Sequence record: MT833282.1
Length of the DNA: 64,000 bases
Direction: 5' to 3' (one strand)
From: Escherichia coli phage vB_EcoM_Shy
Below are positions 21,532-31,947 of the stretch, piece after piece. The number at the start of each line of letters is the position of its first letter. Position 1 is the stretch's first letter. Position numbers and translations under genes: made by a program. A model generated the notes under the pieces. The model worked only from the letters and a program-made list of their open reading frames with translations, was not told the origin of the DNA and searched no databases.

Positions 21532-21996
21532 TTACTTTGGGTATACACTGTCAAGATAAATGTCAGCTTCCATTCTACGTCTGTTTTTCAGACCATTTGA
21601 AGTGACCTTCTTACCTTTGACTGTAACCTTGTTCCACCACTGCATAGCTTCTGCACAACCTACCTTGTTACCAGCATTGTGGCGCTTGATAAATGTAGAA
21701 TCCTGCATAGCTGTGATACCGATGTTGTATGTTTCACTTACAAGTGCATCGAACTCATTCTGAGAAGTTGGAGCCTTGATAGCTTTATTCACTGCTGCAA
21801 CAAACTTCTCAACATCTGCGAGAAGATACTGTTCAGCTTGTTCAGCCGTGATTTTCATACCCATCTTAACAGGTTTTCCGTCAATACGGATTGTACCATA
21901 CCCAATTGTTGGGATTCCGGCAGAGTCTTCGTAAGCCTCTAACTTCAGACCTTCAAAGAACTTAATAGCTTCTAAACCTTTTCTTGAGAGTTGCAT
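21532..21996 (-). CDS. endolysin, T4-lysozyme-like (GH24 muramidase)
   Basis: 154-aa ORF; N-terminal EGLKLEAYEDSAGIPTIGYG resembles the T4 lysozyme catalytic region (E..., D, T); NAGN/ETYNIG downstream. Confidence 0.85.
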   Translation of the reverse strand: MQLSRKGLEAIKFFEGLKLEAYEDSAGIPTIGYGTIRIDGKPVKMGMKITAEQAEQYLLADVEKFVAAVNKAIKAPTSQNEFDALVSETYNIGITAMQDSTFIKRHNAGNKVGCAEAMQWWNKVTVKGKKVTSNGLKNRRRMEADIYLDSVYPK

Positions 21997-23381
21997 TATG
22001 CCTCCCCTGCTGGGTTAACTGTAACTGTTGCCGCATTAGATGTTACAGAGCCACCTGCACCAGTCACTACACAAGTGTAGCTTCCTGCATCAGCAGCAGT
22101 TGCACCTTCTTTGGTGTAAGTTGCAGTCGTTGCGTCTGGGATAACTTCCTCACCTTTCTTCCACTGGTAACCTGTTGCACCAGTTGCCACAACATTCAGC
22201 GTTAAGGTCTCACCTTCAGTGATTTCTTGATTGACTGGTTGTTGAGTGATGACTGGAAGAGCATTAACGGTAACAGTTGCAGCATTAGATGTTACTGTTG
22301 TACCACCTGCACCAGTAACTACACAGGTATATGAACCAGCATCGGCAGGGTCTGCTTTAGCTTTCGTGTAAGTTGCACCAGTTGCGCTAGGGATGTTCAC
22401 GTTGTCTTTCTTCCATTGATAACCTGTTGCACCTGTGGCCTCAATACTCAGCGTCAAACTGCCACCTTCATTGACTACTTGGTTAGTTGGCTGCTTGGTA
22501 ATAACTGGCAAAGCATTTACCGTGACAGTTGCAGGGTTAGAAGTAACAGAACCTCCAGCACCAGTTACAACGCAAGTGTAAGAACCTGCATCTGCTGGAA
22601 GCGCACCAGATTTGCTATAGTTAGCATTTGTAGCTGATGGGATGTCAGAGCCATCTTTCTTCCATTGGTAGCCTGTTGCACCTGTTGCAGTAACTGATAA
22701 TTCAATGTTTCCACCTTCATTAATGGTCTGGCTAGAAGGTTGCTGTGTAATCACAGGTAGTGCGTTAACAGTAACCGTTGCCGCATCTGAGGTAACACTT
22801 GTCCCCGCCTCTCCAGATACAACACAAGTGTATGAGCCAGCGTCAGAAGGAACTACAGATTGTTTTGTATAAGTTTCAGATGTGGCACTGGAGATATCCT
22901 CACCATCCTTCTTCCATTGATAACCAGTGGCATTAGTTGCGAGAACGCTTAGGGTAAGTGTTCCACCCTCATTGACTGTTTGGTTTGTCGGTTGCTGAGT
23001 AATTACTGGTGGCTTAATAGCATCCTTCAGCTTAGCATTCAACATTGAAAATGGCTTAACTCTTGCCAACCATTCACAATACACCGTGTCAACGTCTTTA
23101 CCATTGATAATTGCATATTGTAAATCCATGAAGAAGTCAGAAGTTCTCATTTGAGCACCGACGCTGTAAAGCAAATCATCACTAAAAGGAACTTTGTAGT
23201 CTGGTTTGTAGTCAAACTTCTTAACTTCTGCGATATCAGCTTCAGGCCAATATGAGCTATAGGTGAGTGGTAAAATAGCTTCTTGATATGTTCTAAAATC
23301 ATATCTCTTACCAGCCTTTACATTTGCGATGAAGCCCTTCACAAATTCTTTGAAGTCTGGGTAAGTCTTTGCTTTAATCAT
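21996..23381 (-). CDS. Ig-like-domain repeat protein (four tandem Ig-like modules), possibly virion decoration or adhesin
   Basis: 461-aa ORF; about 200-aa N-domain then four repeats of about 90 aa (ALPVITQQP...ATGATGYQWKKDG...DAGSYTCVVTGAGG...ATVTVN), also visible as about 270-bp DNA repeats. Confidence 0.6.
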   Translation of the reverse strand: MIKAKTYPDFKEFVKGFIANVKAGKRYDFRTYQEAILPLTYSSYWPEADIAEVKKFDYKPDYKVPFSDDLLYSVGAQMRTSDFFMDLQYAIINGKDVDTVYCEWLARVKPFSMLNAKLKDAIKPPVITQQPTNQTVNEGGTLTLSVLATNATGYQWKKDGEDISSATSETYTKQSVVPSDAGSYTCVVSGEAGTSVTSDAATVTVNALPVITQQPSSQTINEGGNIELSVTATGATGYQWKKDGSDIPSATNANYSKSGALPADAGSYTCVVTGAGGSVTSNPATVTVNALPVITKQPTNQVVNEGGSLTLSIEATGATGYQWKKDNVNIPSATGATYTKAKADPADAGSYTCVVTGAGGTTVTSNAATVTVNALPVITQQPVNQEITEGETLTLNVVATGATGYQWKKGEEVIPDATTATYTKEGATAADAGSYTCVVTGAGGSVTSNAATVTVNPAGEA

Positions 23382-23749
23382 TTCTTTTTAGCCTCTAAAC
23401 GTGCGTTTAATCTAAAATAGCCTTTATGTTGTGGAGACACATCACCAACAACGATACCTTCAACTTTATAACCTTTACCGATTACATACTGGATATCCAT
23501 AAGAAATGTACCAAGTCCTACAATGTGGAACATTGGATATAATAACTTATCTGAATCTGGGAGATTAATATCTGGGTTGTAGGTAGGTTGTTTACTAGTA
23601 GGTGTAATATCTTCTTCAGGCCATTTACTTAGTCTCCATGTCAAAGGTGTTGGGATAACATCATTAAGATTGTACCTCCCACCATTCTCCACGGAATGGA
23701 TATAGGATTGTAGGAAGCAATAAAAGTCTTTTGCACTCTTAGCTTTCAT
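23378..23749 (-). CDS. paralogue of the N-terminal domain of the Ig-repeat protein
   Basis: 123-aa ORF aligning to the first about 120 aa of the 461-aa neighbour (MKAK..DF..F......V..G.RY...WPE.DI..Y.PD..P.SD.LLY...F.MD.QY.I..G). Confidence 0.5.
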   Translation of the reverse strand: MKAKSAKDFYCFLQSYIHSVENGGRYNLNDVIPTPLTWRLSKWPEEDITPTSKQPTYNPDINLPDSDKLLYPMFHIVGLGTFLMDIQYVIGKGYKVEGIVVGDVSPQHKGYFRLNARLEAKKK

Positions 23750-25006: not shown

Positions 25007-25378
25007 ATGAAAAACAGAACAAACAAAGGCCAGTTTAAAAAAGGCCAGTCTGGAAACCCATCTGGAAGACCAAAAGGCTCTCGTAACAAAAGCTCACTTG
25101 TAAAAGCTCAACTGACCATTGATAATTCTGCTGAGTTTGCTGCAAAGTTGTTTGAAGCGATTGTTACAAGGGACGCTGCTAAGCTTGCAGAGTTCGGGTT
25201 AAACACAGATGACGTAACCATCAAGAGCATGATTGAGGTCGGTAAAACCATCTTTACTCACTCAGCAGGTGAGATGAAAGCACTTGCAGCAGACACTAAG
25301 AAGACTCCTGATAATGGTGGTCAGTCACAGACAGATAACAAACCAACGTTCTCTGCTGTAGCGACTCTCAAAAAATAA
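25007..25378 (+). CDS. hypothetical protein with N-terminal basic GQSGNPSGRPKG motif
   Basis: 123-aa ORF with AAGAGG SD; this motif is common in small phage proteins near packaging genes; function unknown. Confidence 0.5.
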   Translation: MKNRTNKGQFKKGQSGNPSGRPKGSRNKSSLVKAQLTIDNSAEFAAKLFEAIVTRDAAKLAEFGLNTDDVTIKSMIEVGKTIFTHSAGEMKALAADTKKTPDNGGQSQTDNKPTFSAVATLKK

Positions 25379-25459: not shown

Positions 25460-26875
25460 ATGAGCGAATTATTTAAACATGCGCACCTTCATGCAGGTCG
25501 AACTGAAAATGGTGCTGTAAACCATACTTCATCAATGTCTGCTTTGGTAGACTTCTACAAAGCCGCTGGCTCAAGCCGTAGCAATGTAGAAATCTTACCA
25601 GACCTGTTCTACAAAGCTTTGCGTGAGGATGTTGATGTTGCAGTTCGTATTTTACTGCATATGCGAGATGTACGAGAAGGTATGGGTGAGCGTAAAGCTT
25701 TCCGAACTGTTTTACTTCAAGCAATTGAAGATAAAGTTTTAGAACCTACACAGGTTCTTCGCATTATGGATAAGATTGCAGAACTCGGTCGTTTTGATGA
25801 CTTCAAAATCTTCGTAGGTACTCGTTTTGAGACAGATGCCTTCAAACATTTAGAAGCAGCATTACTAGACCCTGCAACAGCAGGTTTAGCGGCTAAGTGG
25901 TTACCACGAGTAAAACCACGCCACAAACAGTTTGTAAAACGTTTCTGTAAGTTTGCAAACTTAAGTGAGAAGGAGTATCGCACACTGTTATCTGCACTGT
26001 CTGATACGGTTGAGCAAAAAATCTCTGCTAATGAGTTTGGTAAGATTGACTACAGTAAGGTTCCTTCGCTAGCTGCTGCACGTTACCAAAAACTCTTTAA
26101 CCGTAAAGATGGGGAACGTTACAAAGCTTACATCGAGTCACTCTCAAAAGGTGAGGCTAAGATTAACGCTGGTGCTGTTTACCCATATGATGTGATTAAA
26201 TCTATCAAGTATGGTAATGCAGACGTTGCTAATGAGCAGTGGAAAGCACTACCAAACTGGATGGCAGAAGGTGAAAACATCTTGTGTATGACTGATGTTT
26301 CAAGTTCAATGTCTTGGGTGAATCTTGGTTCAATCACTGCCCTTGATATTGGTGTATCACTTGCCTTGTATGTAGCAGAACGTAATACTGGTTGCTTTAA
26401 AGATGAGTTAATGGTCTATTCAACAAGCCCTCATTTCATTGAACTGAGTGGTGATTTACGAAACCGTCATCGTCAGGTAATGCGTCATGTTGAATATGGT
26501 TCAACTAACTTACAAGCAGCTTTTGACCGTATTCTTGAGGTAGGCAAGAGAAACAACTTGACTCAGAAAGATATGCCAAGTAAGCTTATTATCTTCTCTG
26601 ATATGGAGTTTAATCAGGTTGATGGTGCAAATGGTCGTACAAACTTTGAAGCAATTCAGAGTAAGTACAAAAAAGCTGGATACGAAATGCCACAACTAGT
26701 ATTCTGGTACTTAGCAAACCGTAATGGTACTTGCGAAGTATCTGTTAAGGATAATGGTGTAGCAATGGTATCAGGGTTCTCTCCAGCCACTTTAAAAGCT
26801 CTGCTTGGTGGTGAGAAGTTTGACCCAATCAGCGTAATGCTCAAAGCAGTAATGATTGACCGTTACATCTGGTAA
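25460..26875 (+). CDS. vWA-domain protein, TROVE/Ro60-like
   Basis: 471-aa ORF; helical N-region then vWA domain with MIDAS-like DxSxS (ILCMTDVSSSM), GST, IIFSDMEF and C-terminal SGFSPATL, resembling my recollection of the Ro60 vWA region; sits immediately upstream of the tRNA array. Confidence 0.55.
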   Translation: MSELFKHAHLHAGRTENGAVNHTSSMSALVDFYKAAGSSRSNVEILPDLFYKALREDVDVAVRILLHMRDVREGMGERKAFRTVLLQAIEDKVLEPTQVLRIMDKIAELGRFDDFKIFVGTRFETDAFKHLEAALLDPATAGLAAKWLPRVKPRHKQFVKRFCKFANLSEKEYRTLLSALSDTVEQKISANEFGKIDYSKVPSLAAARYQKLFNRKDGERYKAYIESLSKGEAKINAGAVYPYDVIKSIKYGNADVANEQWKALPNWMAEGENILCMTDVSSSMSWVNLGSITALDIGVSLALYVAERNTGCFKDELMVYSTSPHFIELSGDLRNRHRQVMRHVEYGSTNLQAAFDRILEVGKRNNLTQKDMPSKLIIFSDMEFNQVDGANGRTNFEAIQSKYKKAGYEMPQLVFWYLANRNGTCEVSVKDNGVAMVSGFSPATLKALLGGEKFDPISVMLKAVMIDRYIW

Positions 26876-26894
26876 AAAGTTTCAAAAAGGGTAT

Positions 26895-26922
26895 TGACAA
26901 TGTGTTTGATACCCTTTAATAT
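26895..26922 (+). promoter_or_regulatory. promoter TTGACA-16-TAATAT embedded in 8-bp inverted repeat AAGGGTAT/ATACCCTT
   Basis: promoter hexamers upstream of the tRNA array; palindrome arms flank the -35 and spacer (operator-like). Confidence 0.5.
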
Positions 26923-26984
26923 GTTCTACATAGAAACGAAATGAGAGCTTTTCTAAGATACTGAAAAATATTTTAAAAAAGTTC

Positions 26985-27014
26985 TTGACAACCACTAAAA
27001 AATAATGTTAAAGT
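26985..27014 (+). promoter_or_regulatory. promoter TTGACA-18-TAAAGT with inverted repeat AACCACT/AGTGGTT
   Basis: second promoter about 30 nt upstream of the first tRNA. Confidence 0.45.
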
Positions 27015-27040
27015 GGTTACATAGAGTTTGAAAAGTTTAT

Positions 27041-27117
27041 CTCTGTTTAGCTCAGCTTGGTAGAGCGTTCCGTTTGGGGCGGTAAGGTCGGAGGTTCAAG
27101 TCCTCCAACAGAGACCA
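27041..27117 (+). tRNA. tRNA-Pro (anticodon UGG)
   Basis: hand-folded cloverleaf: acceptor CTCTGTT/AACAGAG, D-arm GCTC..GAGC, anticodon loop TTTGGGG, T-arm GGAGG-TTCAAGT-CCTCC, CCA encoded. Confidence 0.7.
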
Positions 27118-27124
27118 AATTAAT

Positions 27125-27202
27125 GTTCCAGTAGACAAAATGGTAAAGTCACCACTCTTTCAAAGTGGATATTTGAGGGTTCAAATCCCTTCTGGAACGC
27201 CA
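27125..27202 (+). tRNA. tRNA-Glu (anticodon UUC)
   Basis: acceptor GTTCCAG/CTGGAAC, anticodon stem-loop CCACT-CTTTCAA-AGTGG, T-loop TTCAAAT. Confidence 0.7.
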
Positions 27203-27209
27203 GTTTTGA

Positions 27210-27282
27210 CAGAAGACCAATTACAGCAAGTTTAATCTTATTCATCTGACACGAAATCGGACAAAGAAGAGATTTGGTCTGG
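27210..27282 (+). ncRNA. structured spacer element A (CAGAAGACC...TwCAGCAA...GGTCTGG family)
   Basis: conserved 5' CAGAAGACCAATTACAGCAA and 3' TTGGTCTGG forming a 7-bp helix (AGACCAA/TTGGTCT); occupies the whole tRNA-Glu/tRNA-Met spacer. Confidence 0.45.
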
Positions 27283-27293
27283 TCATTAAGAAT

Positions 27294-27370
27294 TGCGGGT
27301 ATAGAGAAAGGGCGTCTCACATGTCTCATTAGCATGGTATCGGCAGGTTCGACTCCTGCACCCGCCTCCA
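27294..27370 (+). tRNA. tRNA-Met-like (anticodon CAU)
   Basis: anticodon stem-loop CATGT-CTCATTA-GCATG, T-arm GCAGG-TTCGACT-CCTGC, acceptor with mismatched first pair; Met versus Ile(CAU) not decidable by eye. Confidence 0.55.
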
Positions 27371-27376
27371 ATTTTG

Positions 27377-27436
27377 CAGAAGACCGTATTCAGCAACAAA
27401 CTACTTTTTGCGGATAAAAGAAAAAACACGGTCTGG
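27377..27436 (+). ncRNA. structured spacer element B (same family)
   Basis: CAGAAGACCGTATTCAGCAA ... ACGGTCTGG; helix AGACCGT/ACGGTCT shows compensatory changes relative to element A. Confidence 0.45.
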
Positions 27437-27447
27437 CAATGTATTAA

Positions 27448-27524
27448 GGTTAGGAAGCACATAAGGTATGTGCGGTCGCCTGTTAAGCGAATGGCACAGG
27501 GTTCGAATCCCTGACTAACCGCCA
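27448..27524 (+). tRNA. tRNA-Asn (anticodon GUU)
   Basis: D-arm GCAC..GTGC, anticodon loop CTGTTAA, T-arm CAGGG-TTCGAAT-CCCTG, CCA encoded. Confidence 0.7.
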
Positions 27525-27595
27525 AATTTAGGAGAGAAGCGATTGCTCACCGATTTGTAAGGTGCAAGTCCTTAGCCTGAATAGAATAATAAAAT

Positions 27596-27683
27596 GTGTC
27601 GTTATCCCGTAGATGGTAGCGGTGGGGACTGTAAATCCCTTGTCATTGAGACTCGGTAGGTTCGACTCCTACACGGCACACCA
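27596..27683 (+). tRNA. tRNA-Tyr (anticodon GUA), long variable arm
   Basis: acceptor GTGTCGT/ACGGCAC, anticodon loop CTGTAAA, 88 nt with extended variable arm, T-loop TTCGACT. Confidence 0.65.
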
Positions 27684-27689
27684 AATAAA

Positions 27690-27767
27690 GGTTATGTAGT
27701 TTAATCTGGTTAAAATACTCCCCTGTCACGGGAGATGATGAGGGTTCAAATCCCTTCGTAACCGCCA
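27690..27767 (+). tRNA. tRNA-Asp (anticodon GUC)
   Basis: acceptor GGTTATG/CGTAACC, anticodon stem-loop CTCCC-CTGTCAC-GGGAG, T-loop TTCAAAT. Confidence 0.7.
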
Positions 27768-27853
27768 AATTATAATAAGTATTTCAAAATGATGTTTGAG
27801 AGGGCTATTTAGCCCCTCCCTTAAAGAGTTCTTACGAGTATTCTTTAAAGGAG

Positions 27854-27926
27854 CAGAAGACCAAATTCAGCAAGAACGTATGAAATTTCAAGCCAATTTA
27901 ATTTTGAAAATTTAAACTTGGTCTGG
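27854..27926 (+). ncRNA. structured spacer element C (same family)
   Basis: CAGAAGACCAAATTCAGCAA ... CTTGGTCTGG, 7-bp helix AGACCAA/TTGGTCT. Confidence 0.45.
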
Positions 27927-27939
27927 CTCAACAAATTTA

Positions 27940-28071
27940 CAGAAGACCGTTTACAGCAAAACTTAAACAATCTATTTCTCCGGTAAAGAAAAGGCGAAGG
28001 TTCGATTCCTTCACTCGGCAGATGTCGAGTTGGTGTAATGGTAGCACTTAAGATGATAAACAATGGTCTGG
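27940..28071 (+). ncRNA. structured element D with circularly permuted tRNA-like domain (Y-RNA-like candidate)
   Basis: 5' CAGAAGACCGTTTACAGCAA and 3' CAATGGTCTGG helix enclose T-arm (GAAGG-TTCGATT-CCTTC, 27996-28012), closed acceptor-like hairpin (ACTCGGC-AGAT-GTCGAGT, 28013-28030) and D-arm (GTGT-AATGGTA-GCAC, 28033-28047); order is T-arm, acceptor, D-arm. Confidence 0.5.
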
Positions 28072-28072
28072 T

Positions 28073-28209
28073 AATTATCTTTGTAGATAAGTTATTAAGC
28101 TTCCCTGTGAGTATGCGACCACAAAGGTGAAAGGGTAGATTCTAGATTTAACCCGAAAAGACACATCGCTACAGACCTTAAGCAAGTCTGGGTAGCTTAT
28201 CTACAAAGA
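28073..28209 (+). ncRNA. long hairpin element E (18-bp perfect inverted repeat enclosing about 100 nt)
   Basis: ATTATCTTTGTAGATAAG (28073-28090) is the exact reverse complement of CTTATCTACAAAGATAAT (28192-28209); interior contains CAGACC..GTCTGG hairpin. Confidence 0.45.
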
Positions 28210-28218
28210 TAATTTAAT

Positions 28219-28452: not shown

Positions 28453-28476
28453 ATCTCAATAAAGTTGTTGACATTA

Positions 28477-28505
28477 AGATGTGACCACTTTATAGTAACT
28501 AAAAT
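28477..28505 (+). promoter_or_regulatory. sigma70-like promoter TTGACA-17-TATAGT inside the tRNA array
   Basis: consensus -35 and good -10; downstream 280 nt has no tRNA and no credible ORF. Confidence 0.5.
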
Positions 28506-28787
28506 ACTTCATAATATGTATAATTCAAACACCAATACATGAGCGTTAGACGTAACACAATGTGGGGAAATTTGTTGTACATATTCTGAATAGTTTTCGT
28601 TGCGTAGCGTCTATTTTGCAAATTTAAAATAAATGCAAACGACAATGTTTTCTGGCAGTAGCTTGATAGGCTAAACACCAGTGAGGTCTTCCAATCCCTC
28701 ATCAAAGAATTTGGCGTACTCGCCCACGGTATGATTAATAAGGTGGGCATCTTTAAGGGCTTTCTAAGAGAGCCTTTAAAGATTAAT

Positions 28788-29006: not shown

Positions 29007-29089
29007 GTGGGACGATGTTAAGACTCTAAGGCATGAGCAACGGCCTCCAAAACCGTTTCAAAGGGGTTCAACTCCTCCGTCCCATGCCA
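29007..29089 (+). tRNA. atypical tRNA-like gene, possibly tRNA-Trp (anticodon CCA)
   Basis: acceptor GTGGGAC/GTCCCAT and T-arm AGGGG-TTCAACT-CCTCC fold well; anticodon loop CTCCAAA; D region is enlarged (83 nt total) so the call is tentative. Confidence 0.4.
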
Positions 29090-29348: not shown

Positions 29349-29370
29349 AAGACCTATTTAGGTCTTTTTA
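29349..29370 (+). terminator. rho-independent terminator-like hairpin within the tRNA array
   Basis: AAGACC-TATTTA-GGTCTT followed by TTTTT. Confidence 0.45.
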
Positions 29371-29448
29371 GAGGGCTTCTAAGGTTATTACAGCTTGTTG
29401 TGGAACCTTGTTGCTTAGGTTCTTAGAAGTTCTCTAAAAAGATTTAAT

Positions 29449-29526
29449 GGGAGATTGACGGTAATTGGTAAACCTACCATCCTTAGAAGTTGGTGTTTGA
29501 GGGTTCGAATCCCTTGTCTCCTACCA
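29449..29526 (+). tRNA. tRNA with Leu-type anticodon UAG, short variable arm (tentative Leu)
   Basis: acceptor GGGAGAT/GTCTCCT (two G-U pairs), anticodon loop CTTAGAA, T-arm GAGGG-TTCGAAT-CCCTT, A73, CCA encoded. Confidence 0.5.
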
Positions 29527-30205: not shown

Positions 30206-30763
30206 ATGAGATATTTGAAGTATGCTTCATGGATTTTCTTAGCTTTGTTAGAGCCATTTGCAGCAATCTTAGCAGTTATCTTAGCACCTTTCGTAGTTCC
30301 ATTTTACAGTGAGAAGAAAGGACACTTACCTTTCGGATTTAGATGGATGGAGACATATGACAACCCTATTGATGGTGATGAAGGTCATATCGAACGATGG
30401 GCTAAGATTAGAAAGATTGGTAAGCTAGGTGTCTATATGCAGAGAGTCGGATGGCTCTGGAGAAACAAAGCTTATAACTTCTCCTACCATGTGTTAGGAA
30501 GAGATGTAAAAGATGTTACTAAGTGGAAAGGTAATATCAACGTAAGTTCTAACCCTAAAGATAATCAGACAGGTTATCTCCTAATGTGGAACAGTAATGC
30601 TTGGGGATTATTCGCTTTTATCCCATCAATTAAAGTCTTTGGTAAACAATTCTACTGGAGAATTTATGTTGGGTGGAAACTTAAAAGTGTTGTCCCAGAA
30701 GAAAGAGCATTCTCAAGGGAAAGAGTTATGTTGGCATTCTTTATTCATCCACTGAGAAAGTAA
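30206..30763 (+). CDS. membrane protein embedded in the tRNA array
   Basis: 185-aa ORF with AAAGAGG SD; N-terminal TM helix (WIFLALLEPFAAILAVILAPFVV), aromatic-rich. Confidence 0.5.
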   Translation: MRYLKYASWIFLALLEPFAAILAVILAPFVVPFYSEKKGHLPFGFRWMETYDNPIDGDEGHIERWAKIRKIGKLGVYMQRVGWLWRNKAYNFSYHVLGRDVKDVTKWKGNINVSSNPKDNQTGYLLMWNSNAWGLFAFIPSIKVFGKQFYWRIYVGWKLKSVVPEERAFSRERVMLAFFIHPLRK

Positions 30764-31038: not shown

Positions 31039-31114
31039 GTGGCCTTATCATAAACGGTAATGACCCATGCTGTGAACATGGTCTATACGGGTTCAAATCC
31101 CGTAGGTCACCCCA
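31039..31114 (+). tRNA. tRNA-His (anticodon GUG)
   Basis: anticodon stem-loop CCATG-CTGTGAA-CATGG, T-arm ACGGG-TTCAAAT-CCCGT, acceptor GTGGCCT/AGGTCAC. Confidence 0.7.
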
Positions 31115-31119
31115 ATTTA

Positions 31120-31194
31120 TAGTCCAAGTAGCTTATATGGTTAAAGCGCGTGTCTGAAAAACATGAGAAGAGGGTTCAAATCCCACTGGACTAC
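31120..31194 (+). tRNA. tRNA-Phe (anticodon GAA)
   Basis: acceptor TAGTCCA/TGGACTA, anticodon loop CTGAAAA, T-loop TTCAAAT. Confidence 0.6.
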
Positions 31195-31212
31195 CAATTT
31201 CAAAGGTGCTTA

Positions 31213-31947
31213 ATGAAAGAGATGACAGAACAAGGTAAGGAGATTTTTAGTCTCTTAAAAACCGGTAGAGGGTTTTCTAATCCCCTTATTACTGGTGCAG
31301 CAGTTCTCGGTGGAACCGTAGCTGCCTCTACATCACTTGTAAGCTCTATTAGCTCTGTAACAGACCCTACAATAAAGGATAAACTTGTTGCTGCTGGACT
31401 TACAACAGTTCTGCTTAACAGCTTTACAACGAGTCTGACAAGCACTACATCGACTACTAAAACGCTGACAGATTATGGTCAAAAGTCTATTGATGAGTTT
31501 TCATCACGTATGCAGGTAGCAAAAGGATATTCCAATGTTATGGGTGCAGCAGGAGAACAAGTCGGTTGTACGCCATTTAGTGGTATTATGGGCGTTGCTA
31601 CAGAGTATGGTCAAAAAGCTATTGATACGATTAACAGTGCATTAGACGGTGTTAATGATGTATTAAGTGACTTACAAGACGCTATTGACAAAGGTCTTGA
31701 TACTATTTCTGATTTAGCTAACCAAGCTGTTAGTAAGATTAATGAAGGTATCTCGAAGATTACAGCTTATGCAGATGAAGTTGTGCAGATGATTGAAGAA
31801 GAAGCTGCCCTTATTGCAGAGTACCTTAAAACGAATATCAATGGGTTCTTAGCAGGTATCTTACCAGACTGGTTTGATGATGCTTGTAAAACTGGTGTAA
31901 TTGATACTATTGCAACACCAGAAATGAAGAACGCATTACAGAAATAA
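31213..31947 (+). CDS. hypothetical Ser/Thr-rich protein
   Basis: start re-assigned to ATG 31213 (the track start at 31150 lies inside tRNA-Phe); low-complexity S/T-rich centre; stop 1 nt before tRNA-Ser. Confidence 0.5.
   Translation: MKEMTEQGKEIFSLLKTGRGFSNPLITGAAVLGGTVAASTSLVSSISSVTDPTIKDKLVAAGLTTVLLNSFTTSLTSTTSTTKTLTDYGQKSIDEFSSRMQVAKGYSNVMGAAGEQVGCTPFSGIMGVATEYGQKAIDTINSALDGVNDVLSDLQDAIDKGLDTISDLANQAVSKINEGISKITAYADEVVQMIEEEAALIAEYLKTNINGFLAGILPDWFDDACKTGVIDTIATPEMKNALQK

Follow-up and report, generated by a model that had tools for sequence, protein, structure and literature searches.

Ro60-Y RNA particles form a classic RNA-surveillance system that is still poorly understood, and, to our knowledge, little has been established about RNA recognition by Ro60 outside animals. 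YrlA, an RNA partner of the bacterial Ro60 protein Rsr, is arranged in the order 5' motif, V, T arm, acceptor-like stem-loop (AS) and D arm, with the motif GNCGAAN0-1G as the proposed Rsr contact site, and YrlA occurs as well in mycobacteriophages that have a TROVE protein (Chen et al. 2014, PMC4201824). In the Rfam consensus of YrlA, the V-T-AS-D order stands on two stacked terminal helices with an internal loop. Among phages, the Yrl1 and Yrl2 RNAs of Thermus phage phiLo were picked by their CGAA motif, and the phiLo Ro60 ribonucleoprotein (RNP) binds the host PNPase (PMC12135203); ROT/TROVE proteins have also been mentioned in a jumbo-phage survey. Moreover, a 2024 preprint on PhageMaP reported that gp130 of Escherichia phage Bas63 is structurally similar to Ro60 and counters the Ppl defence (PMC11482910). 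Here, we analyse a stretch of 64,000 nucleotides of Escherichia coli phage vB_EcoM_Shy (MT833282.1; the window in what follows), which encodes the ortholog of gp130 upstream of a tRNA array, and we describe four related elements in the spacers of this array, which are probably the cognate Y-like RNAs of the protein.

The likeness to Ro60 and the anti-defence role have thus already been published for the ortholog. The Felixounavirus protein has a phenotype, since it counters the uncharacterized Ppl defence and this activity is transferable to T7, and its RNA partners had hitherto been guessed. For the RNA elements themselves, we found no published description in the literature and no family in Rfam 15, so that, on these two sources, neither the RNA family nor its core motif, breadth across phages, modular inserts or permuted tRNA chimeras have been described so far. 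The published guess is in this way turned into specific, testable RNAs, and a broad RNA family is revealed.

A Ro60-like fold in a DUF2828/DUF7788 protein

The gene and its MIDAS (metal ion-dependent adhesion site) are located as follows.

25460..26875, + strand: gene of the Ro60-fold protein (471 aa, ATG start; Pfam DUF2828 and DUF7788)
26294..26311, + strand: MIDAS motif DVSSSM, aa 279-284 (other MIDAS residues T349 and D381)

The protein matches Pfam DUF2828 (E 1e-29, 103.9 bits against a curated cut-off of 29) and DUF7788 (E 3e-43, aa 275-455, 148.1 bits against a curated cut-off of 27.1), as well as PHROG 850 (E 1e-183), which bears the label 'RNA-binding protein'; an NCBIfam search of the protein returned nothing, and no relevant paper on DUF2828, PF11443 or DUF7788 was found in the literature. 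In an alignment of 34 homologues, residues D279, S281, S283, T349 and D381 are invariant and make up a complete MIDAS site. The AlphaFold2 model built on this 34-member alignment (predicted local distance difference test [pLDDT], 87.9; predicted template modelling score [pTM], 0.88) presents an all-helical N-terminal part (aa 28 to 263) and an alpha/beta C-terminal domain, corresponding to a helical-repeat ring at about aa 28 to 263 and a vWA domain at about aa 274 to 464. When this model was searched with Foldseek, the top 11 matches were all Ro60/TROVE entries (514 to 557 aligned columns, E 6e-9 to 6e-7), including Xenopus and human Ro60, Deinococcus Rsr, the Ro60 of Thermus phage phiLo and a 'Trove domain' crystal structure. 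The arrangement by which Ro60 is recognized, a ring of helical HEAT-like repeats closed by a C-terminal vWA domain within one full-length fold, is therefore found in the predicted model. An earlier note on this DNA had proposed a 471-aa protein with a C-terminal vWA domain and the MIDAS motif DVSSSM, preceded by a helical region of TROVE-like size, and both parts agree with the ATG open reading frame on the + strand, the five invariant residues and the modelled helical region. Judged by its predicted model, the protein is a Ro60-fold protein, of a DUF2828/DUF7788 branch that sequence models do not join to TROVE.

The family is large, comprising 5,793 clusters at 50% identity with E<=0.001 (2,246 of them with E<=1e-30), and its members occur in 709 phage records. 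The hosts of these phages belong to Escherichia, Salmonella, Vibrio, Aeromonas, Campylobacter, Listeria, Staphylococcus, Enterococcus, Bacillus, Sinorhizobium and Mycobacterium, and the members in cluster-L mycobacteriophages are annotated as 'Ro-like RNA binding protein'.

In two of these phages, we could notice RNA-repair-type genes close to the Ro60-like gene. Listeria phage LMSP-25 carries a 'tRNA-splicing ligase' (RtcB) gene 1.3 kb downstream (L209, 5308-6455; here and below, L with a number denotes a compared locus or genome), and Sinorhizobium phage phiM7 carries the gene of an Appr-1-p processing (macro) protein upstream (L211, 1154-1717). These neighbours echo the bacterial rsr-yrlA-rtcBA arrangement, the RtcB gene of the Listeria phage recalling in particular the Salmonella rsr-yrlBA-rtcBA operon.

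Over the 4 kb around the gene and the RNA elements, the window is 95 to 98% identical to Felix O1-like myoviruses of the genus Felixounavirus, and 323 phage records match this stretch, among them Salmonella phages SapYZU01 and UAB_Phi87 and E. coli phages JH2 and JohannRWettstein (Bas63). In Bas63, whose DNA identity to the window over the 4-kb region is 95.7%, the ortholog bas63_0130 (gp130) likewise has 471 aa and lies at the same position upstream of the tRNA array. Deletion of gp130 cripples Bas63 on a host carrying Ppl (PMC11482910). Different from that report, the candidate RNAs proposed here are the spacers between the tRNAs and not the annotated tRNAs.

Four related RNA elements at the start of the tRNA array

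ARAGORN identified 26 tRNAs between 27041 and 32121, all on the + strand, and Rfam at its curated thresholds returned only tRNAs in the window. Among the first of these tRNAs lie four related noncoding elements, as the earlier note had claimed for this region, followed by a fifth structured RNA.

27207..27285, + strand: E1, filling the spacer 27203-27293 between tRNA-Glu and tRNA-Met (about 91 nt); outer stem UGAC/GUCA, 5' bulge AGA, helix AGACCAA/UUGGUCU, UUACAGCAA at 27221-27229, variable insert, 3' bulge G
27374..27439, + strand: E2, filling the spacer 27371-27447 between tRNA-Met and tRNA-Asn (about 77 nt); outer stem UUGC/GCAA (UUAC/GUAA in Bas63), helix AGACCGU/ACGGUCU, UUCAGCAA at 27389-27396
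27851..27929, + strand: E3; outer stem GAGC/GCUC, helix AGACCAA/UUGGUCU, UUCAGCAA at 27866-27873
27937..28074, + strand: E4, the YrlA-like member; outer stem UUAC/GUAA, helix AGACCGUU/AAUGGUCU, UACAGCAA at 27952-27959, tRNA-like insert
28075..28213, + strand: H5, the fifth structured RNA (about 140 nt), filling the gap between E4 and tRNA-Lys; 22-bp closing stem

The four elements start with CAGAAGACC(R)NNTWCAGCAA and end with YGGTCTGG (repeat families D5, D15 and D16). They share a common fold, in which a 4-bp outer stem is followed by a 3-nt 5' bulge AGA, a 7- to 8-bp helix AGACCRN/NYGGUCU and a 1-nt 3' bulge G, with UWCAGCAA left unpaired immediately after the 5' strand of the helix. On the 64-kb window, the strict descriptor of this core finds exactly E1 to E4 on the + strand and no site on the - strand, the core being confined to the first 1.1 kb of the 5-kb array.

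All four elements are present in 16 related Felixounavirus genomes. Their 5' and 3' blocks are invariant in these genomes, the outer stems show compensatory change (for example, UUGC/GCAA to UUAC/GUAA), and the inserts drift or are swapped outright, as for E1 of L008, L010 and L015. H5, which is also conserved in Felixounavirus, folds with a minimum free energy of -43 kcal/mol (z = -5.0); eight of its pairs are changed on both sides, all of them by a single lineage split (L011-L013). Its inner hairpin CAGAC-CUUAAGCAA-GUCUG-G, which reads CAAACC-CUUUAGCAA-GGUUUG in L011, looks like a minimal capped core, and by this resemblance, the only link of H5 to the family, its membership is possible.

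In the Bas63 record, two small minus-strand coding sequences annotated as 'hypothetical protein' lie over these RNAs, bas63_0137 over E3/E4 and bas63_0138 over H5. The sequence-structure signature described here can be used to annotate an RNA family that is unseen by Rfam and partly misannotated as small open reading frames or 'tRNA-OTHER'.

The core accompanies the gene in distant phages

To follow the core outside Felixounavirus, we took the surroundings of the gene in 65 loci from IMG/VR (proteins 40 to 46% identical), 4 intermediates (50 to 63%) and 6 annotated phages (27 to 37%). As the insert ranges from 9 to 190 nt, a single covariance model was unsuitable, and we used a descriptor with strand and shuffle controls. 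The RNA family is defined by an A-rich lead, a helix of at least 5 to 6 bp that opens with G and closes with C, 0 to 1 nt, T[AT]CAGCAA, the insert, the complementary strand and TG, on the strand of a DUF2828 gene.

In Vibrio, Aeromonas, Campylobacter, Staphylococcus, Bacillus, Listeria, Sinorhizobium and mycobacteriophage genomes, the core is found next to the gene and on the same strand, and in the intermediates it lies beside the gene and again between tRNAs. The consensus consists of an A-rich lead, A-U and G-C closing pairs, five to seven variable pairs, 0 to 1 nt, U-W-C-A-G-C-A-A, an insert of 9 to 190 nt, the return strand and U-G; its 5' strand reads (U/G)(A/G)CAGAAGACC in Felixounavirus and AAAG or AUAAG elsewhere. 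The helix is GGUUCC/GGAACC, GGAAGG/CCUUCC, GGCUUC/GAAGCC, GGAUAG/CUAUCC or GAUUAG/CUAGUC in IMG/VR loci and GUAUC/GAUAC in one intermediate. In the annotated phages, it is GGGUAUU/AAUACCC (Campylobacter F358), AGACAC/GUGUCU (Bacillus FADO and, in three tandem copies, Staphylococcus 6ec), GCGGC/GCCGC (Sinorhizobium phiM7), GGAAGC/GCUUCC (Listeria LMSP-25) and GGACUCC/GGAGUCC (mycobacteriophage LilDestine).

Over 82 loci (833 kb), the strict descriptor found 106 sites on the gene strand, none on the opposite strand and none in five shuffles per locus. It was positive in 35 of 66 distant loci, where 46 of its 50 matches lie within 1 kb of the gene, with 5 kb of flank covered on each side. With no pairing filter, T[AT]CAGCAA has 137 occurrences on the strand of the gene in the distant loci, compared to 66 on the opposite one, and a 6-bp complement followed by TG lies downstream in 68 of the 137 (50%) and in 3 of the 66 (4.5%), respectively, compared to 7.6% when the downstream sequence is shuffled. 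A search that started from the RNA, with the pattern AAAGN6TWCAGCAAN{25,55}CTG and no pairing information, matched at least 120 loci in IMG/VR; among the 120 matches listed, 9 pass the strict descriptor, which is near the number to be expected by chance (roughly 5), and one of those 9 has the gene.

The core helix covaries. For 45 distinct cores aligned in a fixed register, we obtained a covariation score of 0.80, compared to 0.25 for column shuffles, none of 500 of which reaches 0.80, and at most 0.17 when the partner strand is slid; five helix positions are changed on both sides in 16 to 30 of the 45 sequences. The A-U closing pair is found in 40 of the 45 cores, the descriptor having imposed the 3' U only (within TG) and not the 5' A. 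Since complementarity was among the selection criteria, the percentage of paired positions is biased, and it is the strand and shuffle controls that provide independent evidence.

Given that the elements of Ounavirinae sit exactly in tRNA spacers, and that gene-strand tRNAs are present in 28 of 76 distant loci as well, they could be imagined as punctuation of the tRNA precursor, where RNase E or RNase III would enter or hairpins would protect 3' ends, and would then belong to the array and not to the protein. We regard this as very improbable, since only those 28 loci have such tRNAs and the core lies beside the gene in many loci with no nearby tRNA (for example, L071, L074, L077, Staphylococcus 6ec and Bacillus FADO), while none of the 18 tRNA spacers between 28.2 and 32.1 kb of the window contains it according to the strict descriptor. 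It is the gene that the core accompanies, and not tRNA arrays.

A further possibility arises from copies located in the leader of the gene. In L022, L080, L050, L018 and Campylobacter F358, the Shine-Dalgarno sequence and start codon (ATG) of the gene lie within a few bases downstream of the return strand and UG of the element, and this abutment of the 3' strand on the ribosome-binding site suggests autoregulation. The core might then be a cis-acting operator through which the protein represses its own mRNA, with the copies in the array serving as decoys or titrators. As a full account this seems improbable to us: 35 of the 50 strict matches in distant loci lie downstream of the gene and not in its leader, no core is found upstream of 25460 in the window, and the tRNA-like inserts, which recur and covary, speak for a role that exceeds titration. 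Moreover, an operator would still need binding of the RNA by the protein and thus overlaps with the explanation that we prefer, namely, that the elements are cognate RNAs of the Ro60-fold protein.

A permuted tRNA-like module and its circular permutations

The insert of E4 contains the permuted tRNA-like module that had been anticipated in this region, composed of the following parts.

27962..28052, + strand: permuted tRNA-like module in E4; partial Rfam tRNA match of 22.6 bits over the V, T and acceptor part
27962-27966 with 28048-28052, + strand: anticodon-stem-like 5-bp helix CUUAA/UUAAG, enclosing the module
27974-27992, + strand: V hairpin
27996-28012, + strand: T arm, GGTTCGATTCC, with loop UUCGAUU
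28013-28030, + strand: acceptor-like hairpin of 7 bp with the 4-nt loop AGAU
28031-28032, + strand: U8 G9
28033-28047, + strand: D arm with loop AAUGGUA

The acceptor-like hairpin of E4 differs by lineage, being ACUCGGC/GUCGAGU in the window, ACACG/CGUGU in L010 and ACCCUUC/GAAGGGU in L012. Furthermore, the combination of core, T arm, 7-bp acceptor hairpin, U8-R9 and D arm recurs in at least seven lineages, namely, Felixounavirus, L042, L045, L075, L084, L086 (two copies) and LilDestine. E4-type RNAs of different lineages could not be aligned by MAFFT and were aligned by hand in a fixed register. In the resulting alignment of 10 sequences, no two lineages have the same acceptor hairpin sequence, 97.5% of the cells pair, 11 of 12 pairs are changed on both sides, and the covariation score is 0.98 compared to 0.24.

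In three T4-like or large (Aeromonas-type) phages, we observed the reversed topology, in tRNA chimeras of 113 to 124 nt.

L045, 6895-7018 and 7025-7140: two tRNA chimeras
L057, 9019-9139: tRNA chimera
L068, 9184-9305: tRNA chimera

These RNAs have normal acceptor stems and CCA, and Rfam scores them as tRNA with 41 to 57 bits over 113 to 121 nt, their anticodon loop being swapped for the capped core ...AAAGC-GGAUUC-UG-ucaa-GAAUCU-U-UAC(A/G/C)GCAA.... They have the connectivity of E4, with the chain break shifted from the core helix to the acceptor stem, and such a circular permutation argues that the whole assembly of core and tRNA-like body is the functional unit. Together with the exchanged inserts, the circular permutations form a natural series that delimits the important parts of the RNA.

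Comparison with Ro60-Y RNA systems

By analogy, the system would work like Ro60-Y RNA and would be nearest to Rsr-YrlA/YrlB. Like the latter, it couples a Ro60-fold protein with several small RNAs encoded beside it. E4 shares with YrlA the V-T-AS-D order, the tRNA-invariant residues of the T and D loops, the stacked terminal helices and the internal loop, and the shorter elements resemble YrlB in having no tRNA-like domain. On the other hand, different from Rsr, the protein belongs to DUF2828/DUF7788 and not to Pfam TROVE; different from YrlA, the RNAs have, in place of GNCGAAN0-1G, a core in which UWCAGCAA comes after a G-C-closed helix and is followed later by UG; and different from Rsr-YrlA, they are located inside a tRNA array, and versions with circularly permuted tRNA topology exist. 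The system also differs from that of phiLo, whose Ro60 (PDB 9l5y) is deposited as a TROVE domain-containing protein and whose Yrls have the CGAA motif, which is lacking here, where the inserts are tRNA-like or variable.

Two resemblances to known Ro60-binding sites were considered and rejected. GGUCUGG could be taken as a flipped version of the vertebrate site GGUCCGA (PDB 1yvp, RF00019), which lies on the 5' strand, whereas GGUCUGG lies on the 3' strand and is specific to Felixounavirus; outside this genus only YC-UG-R is conserved, and the resemblance is probably coincidental. CAGAAG, as a counterpart of the YrlA-type GNCGAAG, has one extra base and is absent in distant phages.

Several observations weigh against the pairing of this protein with these RNAs as a Ro60-Y RNA system. 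At the level of the protein, the Pfam expectation of the earlier note, TROVE plus vWA or else DUF2828, held for DUF2828, found here with DUF7788, and failed for TROVE, as hmmscan gave these two families only and no TROVE match at E<=1; likewise, no Ro60 was found among PDB sequences at E<=10, whether these were searched with the single protein (phmmer) or with the 34-sequence family profile (HMMER). It follows that the relationship to Ro60 is one of fold alone. At the level of the RNA, the expected hit to Rfam Y-RNA or YrlA models in the spacers did not materialize, E1 to E4 having no match to Y_RNA (RF00019) or YrlA (RF02553) at E<=10 even in a search of 161 nt. Over the window, E4 and 13 distant loci, Rfam at gathering and at E<=10 returned only tRNAs and chance rows and no Y_RNA or YrlA, the sole YrlA row in the window scoring 17.3 bits (gathering score, 69 bits) over tRNA-His/Phe at 31060-31182. 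The core is also unlike the motifs known for Ro60 contact (vertebrates, GGUCCGA; YrlA, GNCGAAN0-1G), and the relaxed descriptor found no element in 23 of 70 distant loci, part of which may be explained by short flanks or variant motifs. Furthermore, the covariation alignments were selected in part on complementarity, and binding of the core by the protein is a suggestion drawn from the co-occurrence of gene and RNA, Ro60 itself holding Y RNA at its outer surface and single-stranded RNA ends inside the central cavity. Finally, growth of T7 on Ppl is restored by gp130 alone, carried by a plasmid or by the T7 genome (PMC11482910), so that the phage RNAs are not required for the anti-Ppl activity.

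This last experiment, together with a core unlike every known Ro60-binding motif, is what would be expected if the protein acted alone, for instance, by protein-protein inhibition via its vWA/MIDAS face, with the spacer RNAs having a separate job and the adjacency reflecting co-expression. We consider this unlikely. From Proteobacteria and Campylobacterota to Firmicutes and Actinobacteria, the phages keep the adjacency and all the other neighbour genes change, including the DUF5681 gene that accompanies the Ro60-like gene in Ounavirinae and is absent elsewhere. If no direct functional link existed, this persistence would be difficult to account for. In the T7 experiment, moreover, host RNAs could substitute for those of the phage. 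If the elements are indeed cognate RNAs of the protein, they may regulate it, widen its range or serve a second function.

With regard to the pairing of a phage Ro60 with Y-RNA-like elements, as put forward in the earlier note, the comparative evidence is stronger than the failed Rfam comparison and supports it: in phages whose proteins share only 27 to 57% identity, the core co-occurs with the gene family, on the strand of the gene and in most cases less than 1 kb away, its helix covaries, and E4 has the YrlA order. The additional suggestion that the pair counters tRNA-targeting nucleases found no support, the only experimental phenotype of the ortholog gp130 being protection from Ppl, for which the protein alone suffices.

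Proposed mechanism

It is possible to hypothesize that transcription of the array begins at promoters immediately downstream of the gene, where two sigma-70-like matches are found.

26894-26922, + strand: sigma-70-like promoter match (10/12 matches), between the gene and the first tRNA
26985-27014, + strand: sigma-70-like promoter match (10/12 matches), between the gene and the first tRNA

Since the number of such matches over the region is not above that in shuffles, they give a weak indication only of candidate start points for a precursor transcript of tRNAs and Y-like RNAs. E1 and E2 fill their spacers exactly, from which we infer that the enzymes processing the flanking tRNAs would excise them: RNase P and 3' tRNA processing would free E1 (about 91 nt) and E2 (about 77 nt), and the geometry suggests that the block E3-E4-H5, between tRNA-Asp and tRNA-Lys, would be freed likewise. 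The protein would then recognize the A-rich lead, the helix closed by A-U and G-C, the unpaired UWCAGCAA 5' of the junction and the 3' UG, as suggested by the co-occurrence of gene and RNA across phyla and by the copies that abut the ribosome-binding site of the gene.

The variable insert might act as an effector module, which in E4 would mimic a tRNA and have its acceptor stem closed, as in YrlA, and might connect the ring with a factor of tRNA binding or RNA decay or control access to the ring cavity. We propose this effector step only tentatively, by analogy with Rsr-YrlA-PNPase and with the Ro60-Yrl-PNPase assembly of phiLo. The net effect would be to remodel host RNA decay, repair or surveillance in favour of the phage.

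More broadly, we are somewhat inclined to think that DUF2828-type Ro60 proteins and UWCAGCAA-core RNAs constitute a previously unrecognized, widespread class of RNPs with modular RNA partners, whose inserts include closed-acceptor tRNA mimics. The same joint reading, held with the same slight preference, would have the core grafted in some phages at the anticodon position of a CCA-ended tRNA and the Ro60 ring coupled to the tRNA world for anti-defence or control of RNA surveillance. The class would extend over thousands of protein clusters and phages of at least four bacterial phyla, and it would link phage tRNA arrays, tRNA mimicry and counter-defence. As the elements are specific, short and conserved, they are direct targets, and it may be useful to conduct binding, deletion and structural work on them in Bas63, a tractable E. 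coli phage.

Other features of the locus

Directly upstream of the Ro60-like gene, a DUF5681 gene (25007-25378, + strand) keeps its position throughout Ounavirinae, with 52 to 99% identity. We considered it as a conserved third partner and rejected this, as it is confined to Ounavirinae and absent from beside the Ro60-like gene in all the loci examined outside this group; it is probably not part of the core system.

Within the array, the 71-nt spacer 27525-27595 between tRNA-Asn and tRNA-Tyr has no core motif but folds stably (z -2.5) and contains AGGTGCAAGTCCT, which is similar to a T arm; either a degenerate tRNA or some other small RNA may be present here. The region's best promoter-like site, TTGACA-17-TATAGT (11/12 matches, 28468-28496), is followed by about 290 nt of highly structured noncoding sequence and then by tRNA-Arg (28468-28787 as a whole). 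A weak tmRNA-like Rfam row covers 28599-28787 (17 bits, well under gathering), and the structured sequence before tRNA-Arg may be another phage small RNA. At 29009-29086 we noticed a tRNA-like sequence not called by ARAGORN, which Rfam scores with 23 bits as tRNA-Sec. Its acceptor is GGGACG/CGUCCC and its anticodon loop CUCCAAA (CCA, Trp); the T arm is normal, and the D region is oversized. The 256-nt gap preceding tRNA-Leu contains a long near-perfect hairpin (29354-29453), whose Rfam microRNA-precursor rows of about 30 bits are at chance level; it holds ATTACAGCTTG, which is core-motif-like, yet does not match the core motif.

Two protein genes are embedded in the array on the strand of the tRNAs (30206-30763 and 31150-31947, + strand); one corresponds to PHROG 2143 and the other to PHROG 2114, the latter being weakly similar to families of tape-measure or GTP-binding-domain proteins. 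On the opposite strand upstream of the locus, 21996-23381 (- strand) encodes a 461-aa protein in which an N-terminal domain, paralogous to the product of the neighbouring 123-aa open reading frame 23378-23749 (- strand), is followed by four tandem Ig-like repeats of about 90 aa, and which is probably a capsid or tail decoration protein.

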